Origin: an uncultured Bacteroidales bacterium
GTDB lineage: Bacteria; Bacteroidota; Bacteroidia; Bacteroidales; UBA7960
DNA length: 64,000 nucleotides
Direction: 5' to 3'
Assembly: GCA_964614525.1 (NCBI GenBank)
Contig: CAZTPA010000001.1
Coordinates: 152,282-216,281 of the forward strand
In this document: piece after piece, positions 3,930 through 49,068 of the stretch
How positions within the stretch are numbered: the first letter of the stretch is position 1
How the letters are laid out: each line of letters opens with the position of its first letter
The notes under the pieces: model-generated
Told to the model about the DNA's origin: nothing
What the model saw: the letters and a program-made list of their open reading frames with translations, nothing else
Databases searched by the model: none
Translations under genes and position numbers: made by a program

Positions 3930-5129
3930 ATGAAAAGCATAAAAAACAATTTAAAAAGTATCTTCTTAGTAAGAAGTATCATATTAACAGCTGTATTGGC
4001 ACTATTATCATTCGGATTAAATTCATGCAGCGAAAATGCAGATAAAAGCCCTGATGAAATTAAAGAAAGAATTACAGAAAAAAACAATTCTATTAATGAA
4101 TTAACAAAAGAAATTGCAGAGCTTGAAAGAGAGTTGGAAAGCATGGGCGCAGTTTCAAACAACAGAACCCGCATACCTGTTACTGTTTCAAAGCTAGAAC
4201 AACAACATTTTGATCATTACGTCAAGCTCAATGGATCAGTTGAGGCAGTGAAATCAGCAACTATAACGCCGGAAATTAGTGGTCATATAAAAATAATTAA
4301 TGTTGATAAAGGCGATAAAGTAAAAAAGGGAACAGTAGTGGCGAGGCTAAATTCTGAAGTTATTGAAAATAATATTAAGGAAGTAAAAACCTCTATGGAG
4401 TTAGCAGAAACAATGTATAACAGACAAAAGAGTTTGTGGGAACAAGAGATTGGCAGTGAAATTGAGTATTTGCAAGCAAAAAATAATTACGAAAGCCTGG
4501 TTTCAAAACTCAAAACATTAGAATCACAATTAGAAATGTCTGTAATAAAAGCTCCTTTTGACGGTATTATTGAAAACACTTTTCAAAAGCAAGGCGAACT
4601 GGCAACTCCGGGAGCGCCTATGATGCAAATAATAAATCTGGAAGCTCTTTATATTAATGCTGATGTATCGGAAAGGTACTTGCCTGTTATGAATCAAAAC
4701 AAAGAGGTAATACTAAGATTCCCTTCATACCCTGAATATGAAGAAAAAGTAGCGGTAAACAGAATCGGTAACGTAATTAATCCTGATAACAGGACATTTA
4801 ATATTCAATTAAAAATCAATAATCAGGAAGGAAAGTTCAAGCCAAACATGACAGCTATTGTCAGTTTAATGACTTTTTCAACAGATGAAGCGGTGATTGC
4901 GCCTTCATTCCTTATAAAACAAGATACTCAAGGTCATTATGTATTTATCGCAAAAAAAATAAATGAAGATTTAAGAGCTAAGAAAGTTTACCTTGAAAGA
5001 GGATTAGATGGAGAAGGACAAACAATAATTGAATCAGGGATAAGTGCCGGTGATCTTTTAATTATAAAAGGGCATAACCAGGTCAATGACGGCTCTCTGC
5101 TTAGTATTTCAGATACTAACCAAAGTTAA
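3930..5129 (+). CDS. Efflux RND periplasmic adaptor (membrane fusion protein, HlyD family), lipoprotein
   Basis: Coiled-coil, lipoyl and beta-barrel regions (VKLNGSVEA..., SPEISGHI, VIKAPFDGII). The track ORF starts at a TTG (3903); the ATG at 3930 gives MKSIK... with a signal sequence ending LNSC. Confidence 0.85.
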   Translation: MKSIKNNLKSIFLVRSIILTAVLALLSFGLNSCSENADKSPDEIKERITEKNNSINELTKEIAELERELESMGAVSNNRTRIPVTVSKLEQQHFDHYVKLNGSVEAVKSATITPEISGHIKIINVDKGDKVKKGTVVARLNSEVIENNIKEVKTSMELAETMYNRQKSLWEQEIGSEIEYLQAKNNYESLVSKLKTLESQLEMSVIKAPFDGIIENTFQKQGELATPGAPMMQIINLEALYINADVSERYLPVMNQNKEVILRFPSYPEYEEKVAVNRIGNVINPDNRTFNIQLKINNQEGKFKPNMTAIVSLMTFSTDEAVIAPSFLIKQDTQGHYVFIAKKINEDLRAKKVYLERGLDGEGQTIIESGISAGDLLIIKGHNQVNDGSLLSISDTNQS

Positions 5130-5164
5130 AACTGAGATTTATTTAATACTCAAATAATCATACA

Positions 5165-8100
5165 ATGTCAGAAAAAGAAGTAAAAACAACAGATATTAGA
5201 GAGTTTAAACCAACAACGATTGCTTTAAAAAACAAAAATACTATCTTTTTATTAGCGATTATATTGGCAATATTCGGCACAATCTCATACAGAATTTTAC
5301 CGAAAGAACTGTTTCCGGATGTTGTTATACCAACAATTATGGTAAAAACAATATATCCAGGAAATTCTCCGGTGGATATGGAAAACCTCATATCACGACC
5401 GTTGGAAAATGAAATAAATACAATCAGTGAAATAAAAAAACTATCATCAGAATCAACCCAGGATAATTCCGATATTTTTGTAGAATTCCAAACCGATGTT
5501 GAAATTAAATCTGCTCTTCAGGATGTAAAAGATGCTGTCGACCGGGCAAAGTCAGAATTACCAAGCGACTTGCAAGTTGACCCGATGGTTATGGAAATTG
5601 ATTTTTCCGAGTTTCCTATAATCAACATAAATATTTCAGGAGATTATTCTCTAAACGAATTAAAGCGTTATGCCGATTTTTTGACTGAAAATATAGAAGC
5701 AATCCCTGAAATTTCAAAAATTGAAATGACAGGAATTGAAGAAAGAGAAATTCAAATTAACGTGGATCCAATAAAGCTAAATGCTAATGAACTTAGTTTC
5801 GGAGATATTGAGAATGCGGTAAGAATGGAAAATGTTTCAATATCAGGAGGTACAATTCTTTTCCAAGACAATACAAGGTGGGCTGTTCGCAGTGTAGGCG
5901 AGTTTACAGATGTTAGAGAAATTGAAAAAATAATTGTTAAGCATGAATTTGGAAATATAGTTTATTTGGGAGACATTGCAGAGATTACTGACACTTATGC
6001 CGAACCTATGAGTGTTTCCAGGCTTGACGATCAAGCTGTTGTTTCACTTCAGGTTGTTAAAAAATCAGGAGAAAATCTAATTGCAGCAACTAATAAAATA
6101 TTTGATGTATTGCAAGAATCAAAAGAAAACGGCAACATCCCTGATGATCTTAACATAACTATAACTAACGATCAATCTGAAAATATCAGAAATCAGTTAT
6201 CAAATCTTGAAAACAGCGTAATAATGGCTGTTATTCTAATAATTATTGTGCTGTATTTATTTTTGGGTATTAAAAATGCTCTATTTGTTGGCATGGCAAT
6301 ACCTCTCTCAATACTAACATCTTTTATGGTTTTGGGAATATTAGATATCCAAATAAATATGATAGTACTTTTCTCTATCATTTTAGCATTAGGATTATTA
6401 GTAGATAATGCAATCGTTGCTGTTGACAATATTTTTCGATTTATTGAAAGAGGTTATCCGGTTTTTGAAGCTTCAAAAAAAGCAATAGGCGAGATAGCAA
6501 TACCCATCATTACATCAACAGCAACAACACTTTCAGCATTTCTGCCGTTGGCATTTTGGCAGGGCATGGTAGGTGAATTTATGAAGTACATGCCTATTAC
6601 ACTAATAATTGTTTTATTATCTTCTTTATTTGTAGCTCTTATTATTATTCCGGTATTATCTTATACATTTTTTAGAAATGAAAAAGCTAAAGCAAATGAA
6701 GAAATTGAAGCTGATGTTTTAATTAAGAAGCGAAAAAATAATTTGAGAAGGCTGTTAATCTCTATTGCTATTATAGCTGTTGGCGGATTATTGCACATTT
6801 TAGGAGTTACATTGTTAGCTAATATATTAATTCTTATTGCTCTTGTAGTTTTAGCTGCAAAATATGTGTTTTCACCATTAGCAAAATGGTTTCAAAATAG
6901 CATTTTACCTTTTAATGAAAAATTATATTCAAGAACATTAAATTATGCATTAAGAGGCAAAAGACCATATTACTTTGTATTCGGAACATTTGTATTCCTT
7001 ATTCTTGCAACTTCTTTTTTCTTTATTAAAAGTCCAAACATATTGTTTTTTCCGGACAATCAACCTAACTTTATTAATATTTTAGTCGATTTGCCTTTAG
7101 GTACAGATATTAAAGAAACTGACATCAGAATTCAGGCCGTTGAAAATCATCTTAAAGAAATTCTTGAACCCAACAAAAATATAGTTAAGTCGATTCATAC
7201 AACTGTTGGACGTGGTGCTGTTGGTGAAATGGAGTTTAGTGCAGGTGACACACCAAATCGTGGGCGCATTACAATCACTTTTGTTGAGCAGGAAGACCGA
7301 ATGGGTGTTAATACAAACTCACTAATTGCTGAAATAAGTGATGAACTCATTGGAGAATATCCGGGAATGGATATAAAGGTTGAAAAAAACAGTATGGGTC
7401 CACCTTCTGGAAAACCTATCAATATTGAGATTAGTGGAAAAGAATATGAACGATTGATTTCAATTACTGAAGATGTTAAAAGTAGAATTAATAATGCAGG
7501 AATTGAAGGAATAGAAGGTTTAAGAATGGACTTAGATACTGACAAACCTGAAATTATTATTAATATTGACAGGGAACAAGCCCGCAGATATGGAGTATCT
7601 ACTTATGCTGTTTCAAATACAATCAGAACTGCTTTGTTTGGACTTGAAGTTTCTTCCTTCAAATTGGAAGAAGAAGACATCCCTATTCAACTAAGACTTA
7701 AAGAGGAATACAGGAACAGCATGTCTTCGCTAATGAACCAATTTATTACATTCAGAAGTCAAAGTACAGGAAAATTAATGCAGGTTCCAATATCCGCTGT
7801 TGCATCCTATGAATACAGCAAAACTTATGGTTCTATTAGTCGGATAGACCTTGATCGTGTAATAACACTATATTCTAATGTTTTACCAGGATATAATGCA
7901 AACCGGATTAATGATCAAATTGCTGAAGTACTTGAGAATATTATTTTACCGGAGGGCTATGCATATGAATTTACCGGCGAGCAGCAAGAACAGCAAGAAT
8001 CTATGGCTTTTCTAATACAGGCATTATTTATTGCCCTGGCAATTATAGCATTGATATTGGTAACTCAATTTAACTCGATTATTAAACCTTTCATTATAAT

Positions 8101-41734: not shown

Positions 41735-42934
41735 TTACTTTATTCTGCCGGGATATACCTTCAATGATTCTTCGAGGCATTTTATAGATTTCTTAAGATC
41801 CTCAACATTTAAAACATAAGAAATTCTAACTTCATCTTTACCGGAGCCCGGGGTAGAATAGAATCCGGTAGCAGGAGCAAGCATAACAGTTTCATTTTTA
41901 TAATTAAAATCGTCCAGTAACCATTGGCAGAATCTGTCACAATCATCAATAGGCAGTTTTGCAGTCACATAAAATGCACCTTTAGGATTTGGACAAACAA
42001 CTCCCGGAATTTTATTTAAAGCTTCAACCACGGTATTTCTGCGTGCCAAATATTCTTCAATAACTTCTGTAAAATATGAATCAGGAGTATCGATAGCTGC
42101 CTCTGCGGCAATTTGCCCTAATGAGGGTGGACTTAAACGTGCCTGGGCAAACTTCAATGCTGTTTTCATTACATCTTTATTTCTTGAAATCATCGCTCCT
42201 ATTCTTATTCCGCAAGCACTATAACGTTTAGAGACAGAATCAAAAAGCACAACATTATTTTCAATGCCTTTTAAGTTCATTACAGAATAATGAGTTGTGC
42301 CATCATAGCAAAACTCCCTATAAACTTCATCGGCAAATAAGAAGAGGTCATGTTTTTTCACTATTTCGCGCAAAACATCAAGCTCTTTCTTAGAATACAG
42401 ATATCCTGTAGGATTATTAGGATTACAAACCATTATGGCTTTTGTTCTGGATGTAATAGCTTTTTCAAATTCAGCTATAGGAGGCAAAGCAAATCCATTT
42501 TCAATTGTAGATTTTATAGGCTTTACTTTAACACCGGCACTAATTGCGAAGCCATTATAATTTGCATAAAATGGTTCCGGAATAATAATTTCATCACCGG
42601 GATTAAGGCATGTCTGAACAGCAAATAGTATAGCTTCAGAAGCTCCGGCACCAATTATTATTTCATCCGGTGTGATATTAATATTATGCTTTTTATAATA
42701 TCCGCAAAGCTTCTCACGATATGAAAGAATACCGGCTGAATGGCTATACTCAATAACTTTTTCATCAAGATTATGCATAGCATCAATCATACTCTTGGGA
42801 GTTGGAATATCCGGCTGCCCTATGTTCAAATGATAAACCTTAATTCCTCTTTTTTTTGCATTTTCTGCAAAAGGAACTAATTTACGAATTGGTGATTCGG
42901 GCATCATTTGCCCTTTTACTGATATATTTGGCAT
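41735..42934 (-). CDS. Class I/II PLP-dependent aminotransferase (aspartate/aromatic type)
   Basis: IGQPD, NPNNPTG, SVSKRYSACGIRIG (PLP lysine) motifs; 399 aa. Confidence 0.85.
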   Translation of the reverse strand: MPNISVKGQMMPESPIRKLVPFAENAKKRGIKVYHLNIGQPDIPTPKSMIDAMHNLDEKVIEYSHSAGILSYREKLCGYYKKHNINITPDEIIIGAGASEAILFAVQTCLNPGDEIIIPEPFYANYNGFAISAGVKVKPIKSTIENGFALPPIAEFEKAITSRTKAIMVCNPNNPTGYLYSKKELDVLREIVKKHDLFLFADEVYREFCYDGTTHYSVMNLKGIENNVVLFDSVSKRYSACGIRIGAMISRNKDVMKTALKFAQARLSPPSLGQIAAEAAIDTPDSYFTEVIEEYLARRNTVVEALNKIPGVVCPNPKGAFYVTAKLPIDDCDRFCQWLLDDFNYKNETVMLAPATGFYSTPGSGKDEVRISYVLNVEDLKKSIKCLEESLKVYPGRIK

Positions 42935-43014
42935 GTTTATATAATTTTATATTTGTATAATATTGTTTGGGCAAAATTGAGGAAAATTTTATATATATCC
43001 TAATAATTTTAGAA

Positions 43015-43044
43015 GGTATCAGGTGTCAGGTATCGGGTATCGGG
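43015..43044. repeat. Tandem heptamer array, left arm: GGTATCA GGTGTCA GGTATCG GGTATCG GG
   Basis: Read directly from the sequence. It is the reverse complement of the array at 43537-43587. Confidence 0.85.
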
Positions 43045-43110
43045 AAAAATTAAAATAAATATTTTTTATATTATATTTTACTCATATTTGCATAAATATA
43101 TGTTGTATCT

Positions 43111-43472
43111 ATGGGTGATTTTAGATATTTAAAGGTTTAGAGTAAGTCAAAAGCCTTAAGTGTATTAATATATAGCTTAACAAGTTCTGGCAGGATTTCA
43201 AAAGATTATGGCTTGATTGATCAAATGATGCGAGCTGCTGTGAGTATTCCTAGTAATATTGCAGAAGGAGATCAACTTGGTAGTAATCAACAATCAATTA
43301 GACATTTTATATTGCGAGAGGATCTGCTTCTGAACTTTTAACACAAGCAATTATAGCAGAAGAAATTAAATATTTATCAAAAAATGATTTGCAAACTATA
43401 GAACAAGAGTGCAATGTAATATGTTCTATGCTCACACGTTTAATTCAATCAAGAAATAAAAAGTTAGAATAA
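43111..43472 (+). pseudogene. Decayed four-helix-bundle protein gene (23S rRNA intervening-sequence protein / DGR Avd-like family)
   Basis: My translation gives MGDFRYLKV*SKSKAL...[21 protein letters not shown]...IRHF then, after a 1-nt shift, [23 protein letters not shown]...LIQSRNKKLE*. TAG at 43138-43140 replaces the conserved Trp. The frameshift lies near 43306-43312. Length is 362 nt (3n-1). Confidence 0.75.
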
Positions 43473-43536
43473 TATAAATTAAAAAATGCAACCCTTGTTT
43501 AACCTAAAAACGGTCAACCTATTCGGGCATGGACAA

Positions 43537-43587
43537 CCAGATACCCGATACCCGATACCAGACACCAGACACCCGATACCAGACACC
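43537..43587. repeat. Tandem heptamer array, right arm: (CCAGATA CCCGATA CCCGATA CCAGACA CCAGACA CCCGATA CCAGACA) CC
   Basis: Seven heptamers. 43544-43573 is complementary to the left arm at 27 of 30 positions, including a perfect 16-bp run. Confidence 0.85.
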
Positions 43588-43591
43588 TTTG

Positions 43592-45055
43592 TTATTTCAT
43601 AAAGTTTTCGATTTCACGCATTTTCTTTGGTAAATGCCCCGATAATATTTCATTTCCATCCTTAGTTATTAAAACAACATCTTCTATTCTAATACCAATT
43701 CCGGAATATTTTTCATAAATCGGCCTGACTTTATCTGCAAACTCATCCAATTCATCAGCAGTAGCAATATCGCCAAAAAGTTCATGAAGTTGATCAAGTT
43801 TATTATCCATCAAATACAAACCCGGCTCCATTGAAAGCACCATTCCCGGTTTTAAGTCCCTACCGCGAAATTCAGGATTTAGAAGATGTTCATCCCTATT
43901 ATCAATATCAAAATCACCGTAACTTCCAACATCATGGACATTAAGACCAATATAGTGACTTGTTCTGTGTTGAATATAGAAACGTTTTTGCCACCATTTT
44001 GTGGTATCAGTGATAAGCCCCATATTATACAAGCCTTCCACCATTATACTATTCGCTTTATGATTAGCATCCAGAATTTTATTCTCCGGAGATAATTCCT
44101 TAACACCTTCCTCAAAAGCTTTCAAAACCAGTTTATAAAGAACTTTTTGTTCAGTAGAAAACTTTCCGTTTACGGGTACTGTCCGAGTAATATCTGCACT
44201 ATATCCTGCTCTGCTGGAGGCGCCAATATCAACTAACAAGAGATCACCTGACTGCATTTCCCTATTATTCTTAAAATGATGCAATACTGTAGCATTTGGA
44301 CCTGATCCAACTATAGAATAAAAACCCACTCCCAGTCCGTTCTTTCTGTATACATATTCAATTTCAGCCTGAGCTTCATACTCTTTCTGACCGGGAGAAA
44401 CAGTTTTCCAAACTCTTTGATGAGCAAAGGCTGTTACCTGCACTGCTTGTTTTATCTGAGAAATCTCCCAATCATCTTTTATTACTCTCATTTCATGAAT
44501 TATTGGATCAATTTCTTTAATATCAATAGCTTTTCCTATTATATCATAAATTTCAAGTAACTGATTTTTAATTGATTTATCCTTAGAATGAAGGTATATT
44601 CTATTTGTATTTTTCAGTAAATCAGGCAAAACATCCAGAAGTGAATCAATATTATAGGCTTTATCAGCACCAAATTTCTCCACAGCTCCTTCCAGACCGT
44701 ATAGTTCGCCTGTCCATTGAGCTGCATGAAGATTATAGGGTTCGAGAAACATTACAAACTGATTTTCTTCATCAGGTCTAAAACATGCAACTCCTGTTCT
44801 CTCATCAAAACCGGTCATGTATTTAAAATCTGCAGCTGCTGCGGTTGACATTATAACAACACCATCCTTTGTTTCGCTTAGTAGCTTATTCCTGCGGTTT
44901 TCAAACACTTCCGGTTTAAAATCAGGTTCAGTCATTTCATAAATAAACTTATTAGGTAAAACGCAGTAATTCTTTTGTGTAAGCATATTTTTTAATATTA
45001 TTATTTGAATAATAATCACTACAAGAATAAGAATTATTATAATATATCTTTTCAT
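43592..45055 (-). CDS. Xaa-Pro aminopeptidase (M24B, aminopeptidase P family) with N-terminal membrane anchor
   Basis: M24 metal ligands (DIGASSRAGYSADITRT, HYIGLNVHD, MEPGLY, IRIEDVV) and an N-terminal hydrophobic helix. Confidence 0.85.
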   Translation of the reverse strand: MKRYIIIILILVVIIIQIIILKNMLTQKNYCVLPNKFIYEMTEPDFKPEVFENRRNKLLSETKDGVVIMSTAAAADFKYMTGFDERTGVACFRPDEENQFVMFLEPYNLHAAQWTGELYGLEGAVEKFGADKAYNIDSLLDVLPDLLKNTNRIYLHSKDKSIKNQLLEIYDIIGKAIDIKEIDPIIHEMRVIKDDWEISQIKQAVQVTAFAHQRVWKTVSPGQKEYEAQAEIEYVYRKNGLGVGFYSIVGSGPNATVLHHFKNNREMQSGDLLLVDIGASSRAGYSADITRTVPVNGKFSTEQKVLYKLVLKAFEEGVKELSPENKILDANHKANSIMVEGLYNMGLITDTTKWWQKRFYIQHRTSHYIGLNVHDVGSYGDFDIDNRDEHLLNPEFRGRDLKPGMVLSMEPGLYLMDNKLDQLHELFGDIATADELDEFADKVRPIYEKYSGIGIRIEDVVLITKDGNEILSGHLPKKMREIENFMK

Positions 45056-46715: not shown

Positions 46716-47297
46716 TCACCTATTAAATAAAAGTCCGATTTGTAATACAGGATTTTGATAATTCATTTTATCTGCAAAGAAGTAGCTGGTTTGCAAGGTA
46801 AGAAGTAGTCTTTTGGTGAGTTCATAATCTACACCAACAAATGGCACATACACTGCTGTTCCAAAATCATATAAAAAAGCTTCAGAAAGTTCATTTTCAT
46901 TTTGGCTTTCCACATGCAAATTATTTATACCTCCCCTTCCAACACCCATTGATGCATTATAGCGCCATCTGCCGGCTTTATGAGTGAGTCCTAAAAACAA
47001 GCCACCGTGCCCCAGGTTAATATATGAAGCCTCAGACTTTTCAGTATCATAAGATGCTCTTTGGCTACCTCCGTATATTCCTGCAGATAAGTTTGAGCCA
47101 ATATAAAAACGCAAAATACCACCTATTCCACTTCCAACAGTAGAGAAACTCCCGTGTGAATTTTGAAACATCAAATAAGATGGCTGTAGAATATGCATTC
47201 CGCCGCTATAAATATTTCGGTCATTTTTTTCACTTTTTTCAGCGGCACTAAGAAAAAAAGGAATACAAAGAAATATATAGATATAAATTAATCGCAT
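46716..47297 (-). CDS. Small outer-membrane beta-barrel-like protein, function unknown
   Basis: Signal peptide, alternating Gly/aromatic beta-strand pattern, C-terminal ...QIGLLFNR. Confidence 0.4.
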   Translation of the reverse strand: MRLIYIYIFLCIPFFLSAAEKSEKNDRNIYSGGMHILQPSYLMFQNSHGSFSTVGSGIGGILRFYIGSNLSAGIYGGSQRASYDTEKSEASYINLGHGGLFLGLTHKAGRWRYNASMGVGRGGINNLHVESQNENELSEAFLYDFGTAVYVPFVGVDYELTKRLLLTLQTSYFFADKMNYQNPVLQIGLLFNR

Positions 47298-47473: not shown

Positions 47474-48532
47474 TTACAATCCCTGAAAACTATATCTAAG
47501 TCCAAATCTAAATCCAACTATCATATCTTTCTTGTCATTAATATGATGCTCAAAAATAGGTAAGAAAGGTTTGTATGAATCTATACTATCAGGATTATAA
47601 TTCCATGCAACTGAAGGGCCTGCTATAATATGGATATTTGGAGTAATTGCATAACCAAAACCTGCGGTAAATGAAGTTGTTTGTTGGCAGCTATTTCCAA
47701 GTGTATTTAAAGATACAAGTTCGGGATTAAAAAATAGTGATTCATTTATAGAAATTACAGATCCCATACCTGCACCTACTGCGAATTTCTTTTCAAAACC
47801 TGGATTATAAGATGTAATAAATGAGGTATAAAACATAGGAACCCCTATCTTAAATGATAAGTTAAGAGGATACATTTCATTTACACTAAGTTCTATAGCC
47901 TGATACCCTCCTTTTCTGACGATGGATAAAAAACCAATAGGTAAACCCTCGTCTAATGAATCTGCTAAATTGACAAAACCTATTTGCAAGCCTTTTAGAT
48001 TTCCCGACACATTAACAAAACCGGCCTGTAGGCCTTCAATTTCATCGCGTGCAGCATTAACAAAACCTATTTGCACTCCGGAAATCTTCTCGGAACAAGC
48101 ATTTACAAAACCACTTTGCACTCCTTTTGCCTCCTTTGCCGAAGTATTTACAAAACCAACTTGTACACCTTGTGTAGTATCCGTAATTGTATTAACAAAC
48201 CCATATTGCAAACCTTTAAAAGAAGAGGTTGTTGTATTAACGAATCCAGCTTGAACTCCTTCAGCAGAGCCTCCTGAAGTGTTAACATAACCCAATTGCA
48301 ACCCACTAAAACTCTTATAATTAAAATTTACAAACCCGACATGGGCACTCTTGTGATGCCCCTTAGCTATATTAACAAAGCCAATTAAAGGAGCATTGAA
48401 ACCATCCGGTACAATATTCAAAGCCACCGTATAGATTGTTGTTTCATTTTCTTGTTTTATAGTATCCTGGGCTAATGCCTTTGTGTTAATTAATACGAAG
48501 GCAATAATTAAAGTTTTAAATAAAGTTTTCAT
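47474..48532 (-). CDS. Secreted protein with about 10 tandem 14-15-aa G(V/L)QxGFVN repeats and a C-terminal beta-rich domain
   Basis: The ATG at 48532 gives the signal peptide MKTLFKTLIIAFVLINTKALAQ. Repeats include GLQLGYVNTSGGSAE, GVQAGFVNTTTSSFK and GLQYGFVNTITDTTQ. Confidence 0.55.
   Translation of the reverse strand: MKTLFKTLIIAFVLINTKALAQDTIKQENETTIYTVALNIVPDGFNAPLIGFVNIAKGHHKSAHVGFVNFNYKSFSGLQLGYVNTSGGSAEGVQAGFVNTTTSSFKGLQYGFVNTITDTTQGVQVGFVNTSAKEAKGVQSGFVNACSEKISGVQIGFVNAARDEIEGLQAGFVNVSGNLKGLQIGFVNLADSLDEGLPIGFLSIVRKGGYQAIELSVNEMYPLNLSFKIGVPMFYTSFITSYNPGFEKKFAVGAGMGSVISINESLFFNPELVSLNTLGNSCQQTTSFTAGFGYAITPNIHIIAGPSVAWNYNPDSIDSYKPFLPIFEHHINDKKDMIVGFRFGLRYSFQGL
47920..48350 (-). repeat. 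Tandem 42-45-nt coding repeats (GFVN units)
   Basis: Periodic G(V/L)QxGFVN in the translation. An antisense ORF (47922..48254) is also periodic, which I take to be an artefact of the repeat. Confidence 0.7.
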
Positions 48533-48666
48533 GATAATAAGTTTAATTTGTATTTTTATTAGAATTTGAATAATCCATTTACCGGATATAATTTGCACAA
48601 TGAAATATTGAAAAATTATGTGAAAAAAATTGGAGTAAGCTTAGGAAATATATTGAACCCAAAACA

Positions 48667-49068
48667 TTATAAAAGAATTACTGACAGTACCATAAGAACC
48701 AAGCCGAACACTCCAGCCAATACATCTACAGCCACTATTTTTTTCCCATTATTTTTACTTAGCATATCTGCAACCCATTTTTGAAATTTCTGATAGTTAA
48801 AAATAAAAAAGATAGCTTTGATTGCAGTTAAAGAAAACATTACACTGATAATAACAGAATACTTTATATCAGTAGTCAACTCCATATACCAAGTAAAACC
48901 AACCAATGCTAATCCAATAAGTGCAACAAAAGGTATCCACTTTGGTCTTTTCCCTGAATATGTTTTTGCAATAAATCTGTTTTCATCCCATGGTAAGAGA
49001 TGCATATAAAAAGGTTTCAGAAAAGCTGCCAATCCAAAACCGAGACCTAGAATTTGAAAGTAGTTCAT
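48667..49068 (-). CDS. Small 4-TM membrane protein, function unknown; first gene downstream of the LytTR regulator
   Basis: Four hydrophobic helices in 133 aa. Preceded by the composite motif and a -7 box. Confidence 0.45.
   Translation of the reverse strand: MNYFQILGLGFGLAAFLKPFYMHLLPWDENRFIAKTYSGKRPKWIPFVALIGLALVGFTWYMELTTDIKYSVIISVMFSLTAIKAIFFIFNYQKFQKWVADMLSKNNGKKIVAVDVLAGVFGLVLMVLSVILL

Follow-up and report, generated by a model that had tools for sequence, protein, structure and literature searches.

The locus and its heptamer arms

The 64,000-nucleotide stretch analysed here (the window, or 64-kb window; contig CAZTPA010000001.1 of assembly GCA_964614525.1, from an uncultured Bacteroidales bacterium) carries, between an aminotransferase gene and an aminopeptidase gene, a decayed gene for a four-helix-bundle (4HB) protein bracketed by two tandem-heptamer arrays in inverted orientation. 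The protein belongs to PF05635, a family named after open reading frames (ORFs) in 23S rRNA intervening sequences (IVS) and homologous to Avd of the diversity-generating retroelements (DGRs) (PMC10053308). We have found that such heptamer arms are the normal flank of free-standing 4HB genes across phyla, so that the window locus is an ordinary member of the family in the course of decay and what looked like its peculiarity is a family-wide design. The parts of the insert and the two genes beside it are as follows.

43015-43044, + strand: left (5') arm, GGTATCA GGTGTCA GGTATCG GGTATCG followed by GG, G-rich reading inward
43045-43110, + strand: AT-rich leader, from the left arm to the ATG
43111-43474, + strand: 4HB pseudogene (PF05635/TIGR02436), a profile match after reading through lesions
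43475-43536, + strand: trailer, from the 4HB stop codon to the right arm
43537-43587, + strand: right (3') arm, about 7.4 tandem CCNGAYA units, complementary to the left arm
41735-42934, - strand: class I/II aminotransferase gene
43592-45055, - strand: Xaa-Pro aminopeptidase (M24) gene, pepP, with its stop codon at 43592-43594, 4 nt from the right arm

The four GGTRTCR heptamers of the left arm occupy 43015-43042, and both these and the seven complementary heptamers on the right are present as the initial annotation of this DNA described them; in the right arm, Tandem Repeats Finder (TRF) also gives a 21-nt super-period with 90% matches. The annotation had further stated that the arms can pair at 27 of 30 positions with 16 bp perfect, and our recomputation returned the same result: 43015-43044 and 43544-43573 are complementary at 27/30 positions, and the inner 16 bp, read off the sequence, are without mismatch. 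A degenerate pattern of two heptamer units, GGTRTCRGGTRTCR, searched with at most one mismatch, had 8 matches in 64 kb, all of them at this locus (shuffle mean 0.06), and a generic tandem-heptamer search gave no second array in the window.

Folding as RNA, which had been proposed as a check, predicts a stable stem on both strands, with z about -6. The 591-nt region has a folding energy of -147.1 kcal/mol (z = -6.2) as + RNA and of -143.9 kcal/mol (z = -6.0) as - RNA; the energy of the arm-arm duplex is -50.4 kcal/mol in the + RNA and -55.8 kcal/mol in the - RNA, as compared with -20.1 +/- 3.2 for shuffled arms. The predicted stem is lengthened inward by 43061-43089, which is 76% complementary to 43459-43487. 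We also noticed that a 92-nt contig of another, higher-GC organism from the same mat carries an array near-identical to that at 43014-43045 of the window, with unrelated flanks.

Arms across the gene family

We fetched 80 loci encoding relatives of the protein (36-100% identity), with one genome per GTDB species, and 73 of them had enough flank for the comparison; the hosts belong to Bacteroidota, Pseudomonadota, Nitrospirota, Planctomycetota, Clostridia, Acidobacteriota, Gemmatimonadota and other groups. Each gene was scored by comparing its 300 nt of upstream flank with its 300 nt of downstream flank and taking the highest complementarity without gaps; as controls we used 134 intervals with an identical layout, shifted to other places in these loci. 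Complementarity of the flanks exceeded that of all 20 dinucleotide shuffles at 56 of the 73 loci, and an inverted-repeat score of 17 or more was reached by 36 of the 73 but by none of the 134 controls, whose maximum was 13. On these 36-56 of 73 independent loci versus 0/134 controls we define a class, the stem-enclosed 4HB cassette: a PF05635 gene having inverted tandem arrays of 7-9-mers within about 150 nt on both sides, G-rich inward. The window locus shows every one of these features. Arms and gene form one unit across many phyla, and the view that heptamer arms are unusual must be given up, as they are the norm of the family.

Among the 36 strong loci, 27 have arms with a period of 7 nt, 6 with one of 8 nt and 2 with one of 9 nt. 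The unit itself is specific to the locus (e.g. GGCGTAG, GGCTAAA, GGTCATG, AGTTCAC, GGGAACA and GGATCGT), and the arms have a polarity: reading inward, G exceeds C in 29 loci and falls below it in 5 (p = 4e-5). Because the arms are inverted, this polarity holds for transcripts of either direction. Pairs of loci that share a unit tend to encode more similar 4HB proteins (rho = -0.17, calculated from pairs that are non-independent), and such pairs include unrelated hosts, GGCGTAG for example being found in a gammaproteobacterial and a clostridial metagenome-assembled genome (MAG).

Cyanobacterial plasmid copies share the design and give an impression of this variety. In Nostoc punctiforme, the copy on plasmid pNPUN02 has GGAGTCA arms and that on pNPUN01 has GGGTGTG/GGGTGTA arms; the Picosynechococcus copy has GGAGATA arms, the Geminocystis copy GGGAAGA and TTTTCCC arms, and the Anabaena 90 copy an array of about 300 nt, (GGTGACA/GGGAACA)n, with (TGTCACC)4 as its partner. 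The alpha and gamma plasmids of Nostoc PCC 7120 (L209, L210) carry near-identical 4HB genes that keep a downstream (CYTCTGC)n array and have, directly upstream and in the place of the left arm, an ISL3-family transposase gene; with their upstream arms removed by these insertions, the two copies could not serve as models.

The interior pseudogene

When read through its two lesions, the interior encodes 120 aa that match PF05635 with E = 7.6e-32 (110 bits against a cut-off of 33.8, profile positions 3-105 of 106 covered) and TIGR02436 with E = 5e-32 (110 bits, cut-off 24). Codon 10 is TAG (43138-43140), where the ortholog described below has TGG (Trp), and 1 nt, a C in the ortholog, is absent between 43307 and 43308, so that the ORF is not intact. 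Profile matches and ortholog agree with the earlier description of a decayed IVS-protein member with these same two lesions, and the gene is, by its sequence, a pseudogene member of PF05635/TIGR02436. In sequence comparison with solved structures, the ortholog is closest to 2GSC (E = 2e-18), followed by 2RLD (E = 9e-5), and the closest solved homologs have five chains in the crystal. There was no match to the protein in PADLOC or PHROGs.

In contigs of the mat metagenome from which the window derives, the 5' end of the gene is found in at least two other alleles. One combines a changed start codon (ATG>ATA, 43113) with TGG at codon 10 (TAG>TGG, 43139), and the other keeps the TAG and has a K-to-N change (G>T at 43134). 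The frameshift is present in the sole contig that spans its site, and arm positions 43035 and 43539 are polymorphic in the mat population (both in run X1, as are the two other alleles, at 43052-43169). At least three broken alleles coexist in the lineage, and the pattern is that expected of neutral decay following a first lesion. A low-depth contig that matches both 43051-68 and 43468-86 over 18-19 nt was considered as a deletion allele and was judged to be a chance AT-rich match.

The ortholog and the history of the site

The best database match (P0001) is an intact protein of 129 aa with 77% identity, encoded in MAG GCA_018335675.1 in the same gene order as in the window: TPR-SpoIIE, aminotransferase, 4HB, aminopeptidase P and DUF1573. 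Its gene is likewise enclosed by inverted heptamer arrays, which are longer (8 and about 14 units), give a duplex of -91 kcal/mol and are made of units that partly differ from those of the window (GGTATTA, GGTGTCA, GGTGTTG). Because GGTGTTG or its complement CAACACC occurs in both arms of the P0001 species and in neither arm of the window, comparison of the two suggests that the arms of one cassette evolve in concert.

Between the window and GCA_018335675.1, the 4HB gene shows a ratio of nonsynonymous to synonymous divergence (dN/dS) of 0.115 with dS = 1.59, and the adjacent aminotransferase of the same species pair has dS = 1.93 and 87% amino-acid identity. Because dN/dS is this low and dS is near that of the flanking gene, the cassette was inherited vertically from an ancestor shared with GCA_018335675.1 and has resided long at the pepP/aminotransferase site; the protein was under purifying selection for most of its history, and its inactivation in the window is recent.

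Further relatives at the orthologous site were found via the aminopeptidase, and the intergenic region was read in aminopeptidase orientation. In L208 the ATTAGG box that precedes the aminotransferase gene comes immediately after the stop codon of the aminopeptidase, with no heptamers; the same box, conserved in that position and seen in the window as CCTAAT (42999-43004), is, from the comparison with empty sites, the other boundary of the insert. L207 has an arms-only hairpin, GGTGTCA GGTGTCA GGTATCA attttcta CCTGACA CCTGATA CC, with a predicted stem of 20 bp (-35 kcal/mol) and a distal arm identical to the last two units of the distal arm in the window. L205 has a single five-unit array and no partner array, and L217 has an unrelated 15-bp hairpin. 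The neighbour-joining tree of the aminopeptidase groups the window with L205 and the intact-gene species with L207, L208 being sister to the latter pair.

Sister lineages thus appear to have decayed further than the window, to an arms-only hairpin, to a single array and to nothing. Because the history of the gene is vertical, the simplest reading of these sites is repeated loss, leading from the intact gene through the pseudogene of the window to arms only, one array and finally nothing; insertion of the gene into a pre-existing hairpin is a possible alternative to this series. We mention separately that L202 1-430 consists of seven copies of a tandem repeat of about 55-69 nt, each with a short array of CCCGATA/CCCGACA and, after it, a conserved sequence of 35 nt, GGGATATTCCCCACGCATAGGATTGCCACTCCCCG.

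Surroundings in the window

The coordinates agree with the earlier statement that 4 nt separate the right arm from the stop codon of the aminopeptidase; transcripts reading through from pepP would cross the cassette in the direction antisense to the 4HB gene. The cassette had also been described as far from any rRNA gene and without a reverse transcriptase nearby, and both points hold: there is no rRNA and no Rfam family at gathering score anywhere in the 64-kb window (the sole match in a local Rfam scan at E <= 1 was a chance sRNA), and no reverse transcriptase was found with Pfam among 12 large ORFs scanned from 34.1 to 52.2 kb, all of them housekeeping genes, whose products include UvrA, the TPR-SpoIIE protein, DUF1573, SDR, a two-component system and MurB. 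No transposase was found in the neighbouring ORFs scanned. A scan for sigma-70 promoters and terminators, which does not cover Bacteroidota, gave fewer promoter-like sites than the shuffles. For three consecutive ORFs on the - strand, of 193 aa (46716-47297), 374 aa (47474-48598) and 133 aa (48667-49068), Pfam gave nothing at E <= 1e-5.

Proposed explanation and alternatives

We consider it probable, though far from settled, that the cassette in the window is one of a widespread kind, resident at its site and inactivated not long ago, with the 4HB gene in the apical region of a stem formed by inverted arrays. A transcript crossing the cassette in either direction would fold the arms into a double-stranded RNA stem of about 30 bp (-50 to -56 kcal/mol). 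By analogy with rRNA intervening sequences, RNase III may cut this stem, and the cut would part the cassette RNA from the host transcript; here, the host transcript would be a pepP-to-aminotransferase read-through with the 4HB gene antisense, if the two same-strand genes are co-transcribed. Tandem repetition would allow the pairing to tolerate register shifts while the arms evolve by slippage, and after loss of the gene the stem could persist as an intergenic hairpin. It is a speculation that the G-rich-first polarity may keep C-rich RNA paired and hidden from Rho.

Several observations weigh against this explanation. About a quarter to a half of the family loci are without clear arms. The mismatches in the arms show no G:U bias (52 in the sense RNA versus 49 in the antisense only), and because of these counts a constraint specific to the sense RNA is unsupported: the constraint on pairing is not demonstrably one on that RNA, and DNA could be its level instead. 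Metatranscriptome data from Brocadia count in favour of the explanation, with one 4HB cassette standing 10-20x above its flanks and, in one library, both arms inside the high-depth region; this depth reports expression in one family member, not processing, and it was taken from assembled contigs, which break at repeats. Finally, arrays of the unit GGTATCG also exist independently of 4HB genes and mostly alone. An exact search of metagenome contigs for three units of GGTATCG gave at least 120 loci, whose neighbourhood was searched for 4HB genes with a broad hidden Markov model (HMM) of the family; among the uncensored arrays of the matches listed, 67 are solitary and intergenic, 5 form short arms-only hairpins, 2 flank a 4HB gene, and 2 array pairs enclose 180-240 nt without a gene.

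We have rejected the idea that GGTATCG arrays always mark 4HB genes, since a 4HB gene stands beside only 2 of about 76 arrays among the matches listed (narrow, then broad HMM). The initial annotation held that heptamer arrays unassociated with this gene family would speak against a special cassette, and this has turned out to be half the case: GGTATCG arrays are common without a 4HB gene, but the association in the other direction, from gene to arms, is strong. In one high-GC metagenome contig (L104 2823-9066), arrays of the GGTATCG type occur in five successive intergenic regions within 7 kb; one array pair encloses a 4HB gene, and the array at 5103-5218 is an arms-only hairpin.

A DNA-level mobile cassette, in which the arrays are terminal inverted repeats or form cruciform or hairpin DNA and movement is brought about by either the 4HB protein or an enzyme of the host, is in our judgement unlikely, although it has several observations on its side. 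On a Picosynechococcus PCC 7003 plasmid (L213 1150-1579), the 4HB gene with its arms lies between cas10 and cmr3, whereas in PCC 7002 (91% identity) nothing but a 12-nt junction, free of arms, stands there. On pANA02 of Anabaena 90 (L214 819-1661), a 4HB cassette lies between cas6 and cas4, where Dolichospermum UHCC 0315A, despite 98.7% identity, has a different inverted-repeat element of 245 nt. In addition, L208 has neither gene nor arms, the similarity of arm units follows the identity of the 4HB proteins across unrelated hosts (the aforementioned rho), and the arm mismatches carry no RNA-strand bias. On the other side, the window copy is old and vertically inherited, no transposase is near it, and the units differ within one genome, as on the two N. 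punctiforme plasmids. At the filled and empty junctions compared (the window site, cas10/cmr3 and cas6/cas4) we could recognise no target-site duplication, and, unlike a miniature inverted-repeat transposable element (MITE), the cassette shows no shared duplication and is present in a single copy in the 64-kb window. The presence/absence differences themselves fit gain or loss alike.

The earlier suggestion of a small selfish or mobile cassette is accordingly retained in part: the differences at the window site and at the two other sites fit gain or loss of gene and arms as a unit, but at the window locus, with its vertical inheritance and its purifying selection for most of its history, mobility is unsupported. 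Likewise, the comparison of empty and filled sites that had been recommended did reveal differences, but no target-site duplication.

The two sites in CRISPR-cas operons gave some further observations. The Dolichospermum plasmid element (L215 819-1065) has the terminal inverted repeats GTAGGTTGGGTT...AACCCAACCTAC, and the cas6/cas4 junction gives the impression of a hotspot of small hairpin elements. The annotated cas4 start of Anabaena 90 overlaps the right arm, (TGTCACC)4 (L214 1596-1661; NC_019429.1 44155-44220), and was probably called too far upstream, because the Dolichospermum cas4 is 45 nt shorter. Altae-Tran et al. 2023 list '23S rRNA IVP' among CRISPR-associated genes (PMC10910872), and 4HB cassettes inside CRISPR-cas operons may be the reason for this entry.

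It is decidedly improbable that the arrays are phased binding sites of a protein, either the 4HB protein as a pentamer in autoregulation or nucleoid proteins such as IHF/HU, and that the stem is incidental. The inverted 8-, 9- and 7-mer pairs of Geobacter metallireducens have been read as sites of global regulators (PMC2700814), the five chains in crystals of the closest solved homologs would suit a pentamer, and the 21-nt super-period at the window corresponds to about two helical turns. However, variation of the units between loci and within genomes makes a single sequence-specific binder unlikely, the complementarity between the arms is maintained although simple binding sites need none, and in L207 the arms appear to have outlasted the gene. 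Coincidence, that is a gene merely lying between two common intergenic heptamer microsatellites, is very hard to maintain: lone arrays of the window's unit are indeed frequent in metagenomes, but none of the displaced controls reaches the score of 36/73 gene flanks, no array occurs elsewhere in the window, and the ortholog keeps both arms, which together with the controls already contradicts this reading. That the locus is a DGR remnant whose gene is Avd can practically be dismissed, since, for all the homology between PF05635 proteins and Avd (PMC10053308), neither the 12 large ORFs around the cassette nor the intact ortholog locus, with its same housekeeping neighbours, includes a reverse transcriptase, and the one true avd examined (pANA02) has no enclosing arms.

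Significance

The 4HB 'IVS protein' family is very widespread, this subfamily by itself comprising 1731 clusters at E <= 1e-10, and the role of the family outside DGRs has been a question ever since its discovery in rRNA intervening sequences. Free-standing 4HB genes prove to be packaged systematically in a heptamer-repeat stem, which can outlive the gene and has the same design in an rRNA IVS, and this design ties together rRNA intervening sequences, intergenic tandem heptamers and orphan 4HB genes. The family-wide arm design appears to be undescribed so far: we found no published account of heptamer arrays flanking free-standing 4HB genes, in a search whose coverage of subscription journals was poor, so that a prior description is possible. 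For annotation, it matters that the arms overlap one annotated gene start (cas4 of Anabaena 90) and that they may break assemblies or lead to spurious associations with repeats or CRISPR; arms-only hairpins become recognisable as relics.

Comparison with known systems

The label 'Avd-like' given to the interior was an overstatement, as no DGR feature is present. By its sequence, the window protein would have a 4HB fold homologous to that of DGR Avd, but unlike a DGR the cassette has no reverse transcriptase among the 12 ORFs scanned and no template or variable repeats in a local inverted-repeat comparison, made with no further search for repeat pairs. In the pANA02 DGR, the interval separating avd from the gene for the reverse transcriptase contains three tandem ACCAATT units (L220 10108-10128), and no array complementary to these lies upstream.

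The genome paper on G. metallireducens describes inverted tandem 8-, 9- and 7-mers arranged as intergenic pairs (24, 21 and 8, respectively), proposes them as IHF/HU (global regulator) binding sites, reports IS110-family insertions alongside and makes no tie between the repeat pairs and the 4HB family (PMC2700814). These pairs (Aklujkar 2009, classes 1-3) are equivalent to the arms-only hairpins of L207 and L103, both being short tandem repeats on opposite strands at variable distance. They differ from the cassettes in that they were described without an enclosed 4HB gene, are multicopy with one consensus per class and were read as IHF/HU sites.

The short tandemly repeated repetitive (STRR) heptamers of cyanobacteria are, like the cassette arms, tandem and intergenic, and arrays of this kind flank the 4HB cassettes that we examined in cyanobacteria; the window, on the other hand, comes from a Bacteroidota-like genome in a microbial mat. 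We know of no published link between STRR sequences and the 4HB family. Repetitive extragenic palindromic (REP) elements and the REP-associated transposases (REPtrons) have a gene between inverted copies of a short element that is far commoner alone between genes. L104, with its five arrays of one unit and one pair enclosing a 4HB gene, is reminiscent of this arrangement, but the units of the cassettes vary even within one genome, there is no transposase fold, and the arms are tandem 7-mers and not palindromic REP sequences; a REP-like relation between cassettes and lone arrays is a possible alternative. A wider scheme would regard stem-enclosed 4HB cassettes as the gene-bearing 'master' form of the heptamer arrays and hairpins found between genes across phyla (Geobacter pairs, STRR, lone GGTATCG arrays), with pentameric 4HB binding, seeding or propagating the arrays as in REP systems and the rRNA IVS as a special case; we regard this as a doubtful conjecture.

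The preferred reading, of a resident and inactivated cassette in a stem of its own, has a close counterpart in the ORF-bearing 23S IVS, as the initial annotation recognised from the organisation. The IVS lie in helix 9, 25 or 45 of 23S rRNA, whereas the window cassette stands between two protein-coding genes and antisense to both; also unlike the IVS, both of its arms are overt heptamer microsatellites, and its RNase III processing is proposed by analogy. In Coxiella, the IVS stem is cleaved by RNase III, whose 5' cut falls on the first unit in a tandem run of three GACAGAT heptamers; the copy number of these differs between strains, and the authors hold the RNA part to be more relevant than the decaying ORF (PMC4990558). 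The window cassette shares with the IVS of Coxiella and Leptospira (S23p ORF) a protein of the same family inside an enclosing terminal inverted-repeat stem (27/30, z about -6 and -50 to -56 kcal/mol in the window), and in both the ORF tends to decay while the RNA element stays.

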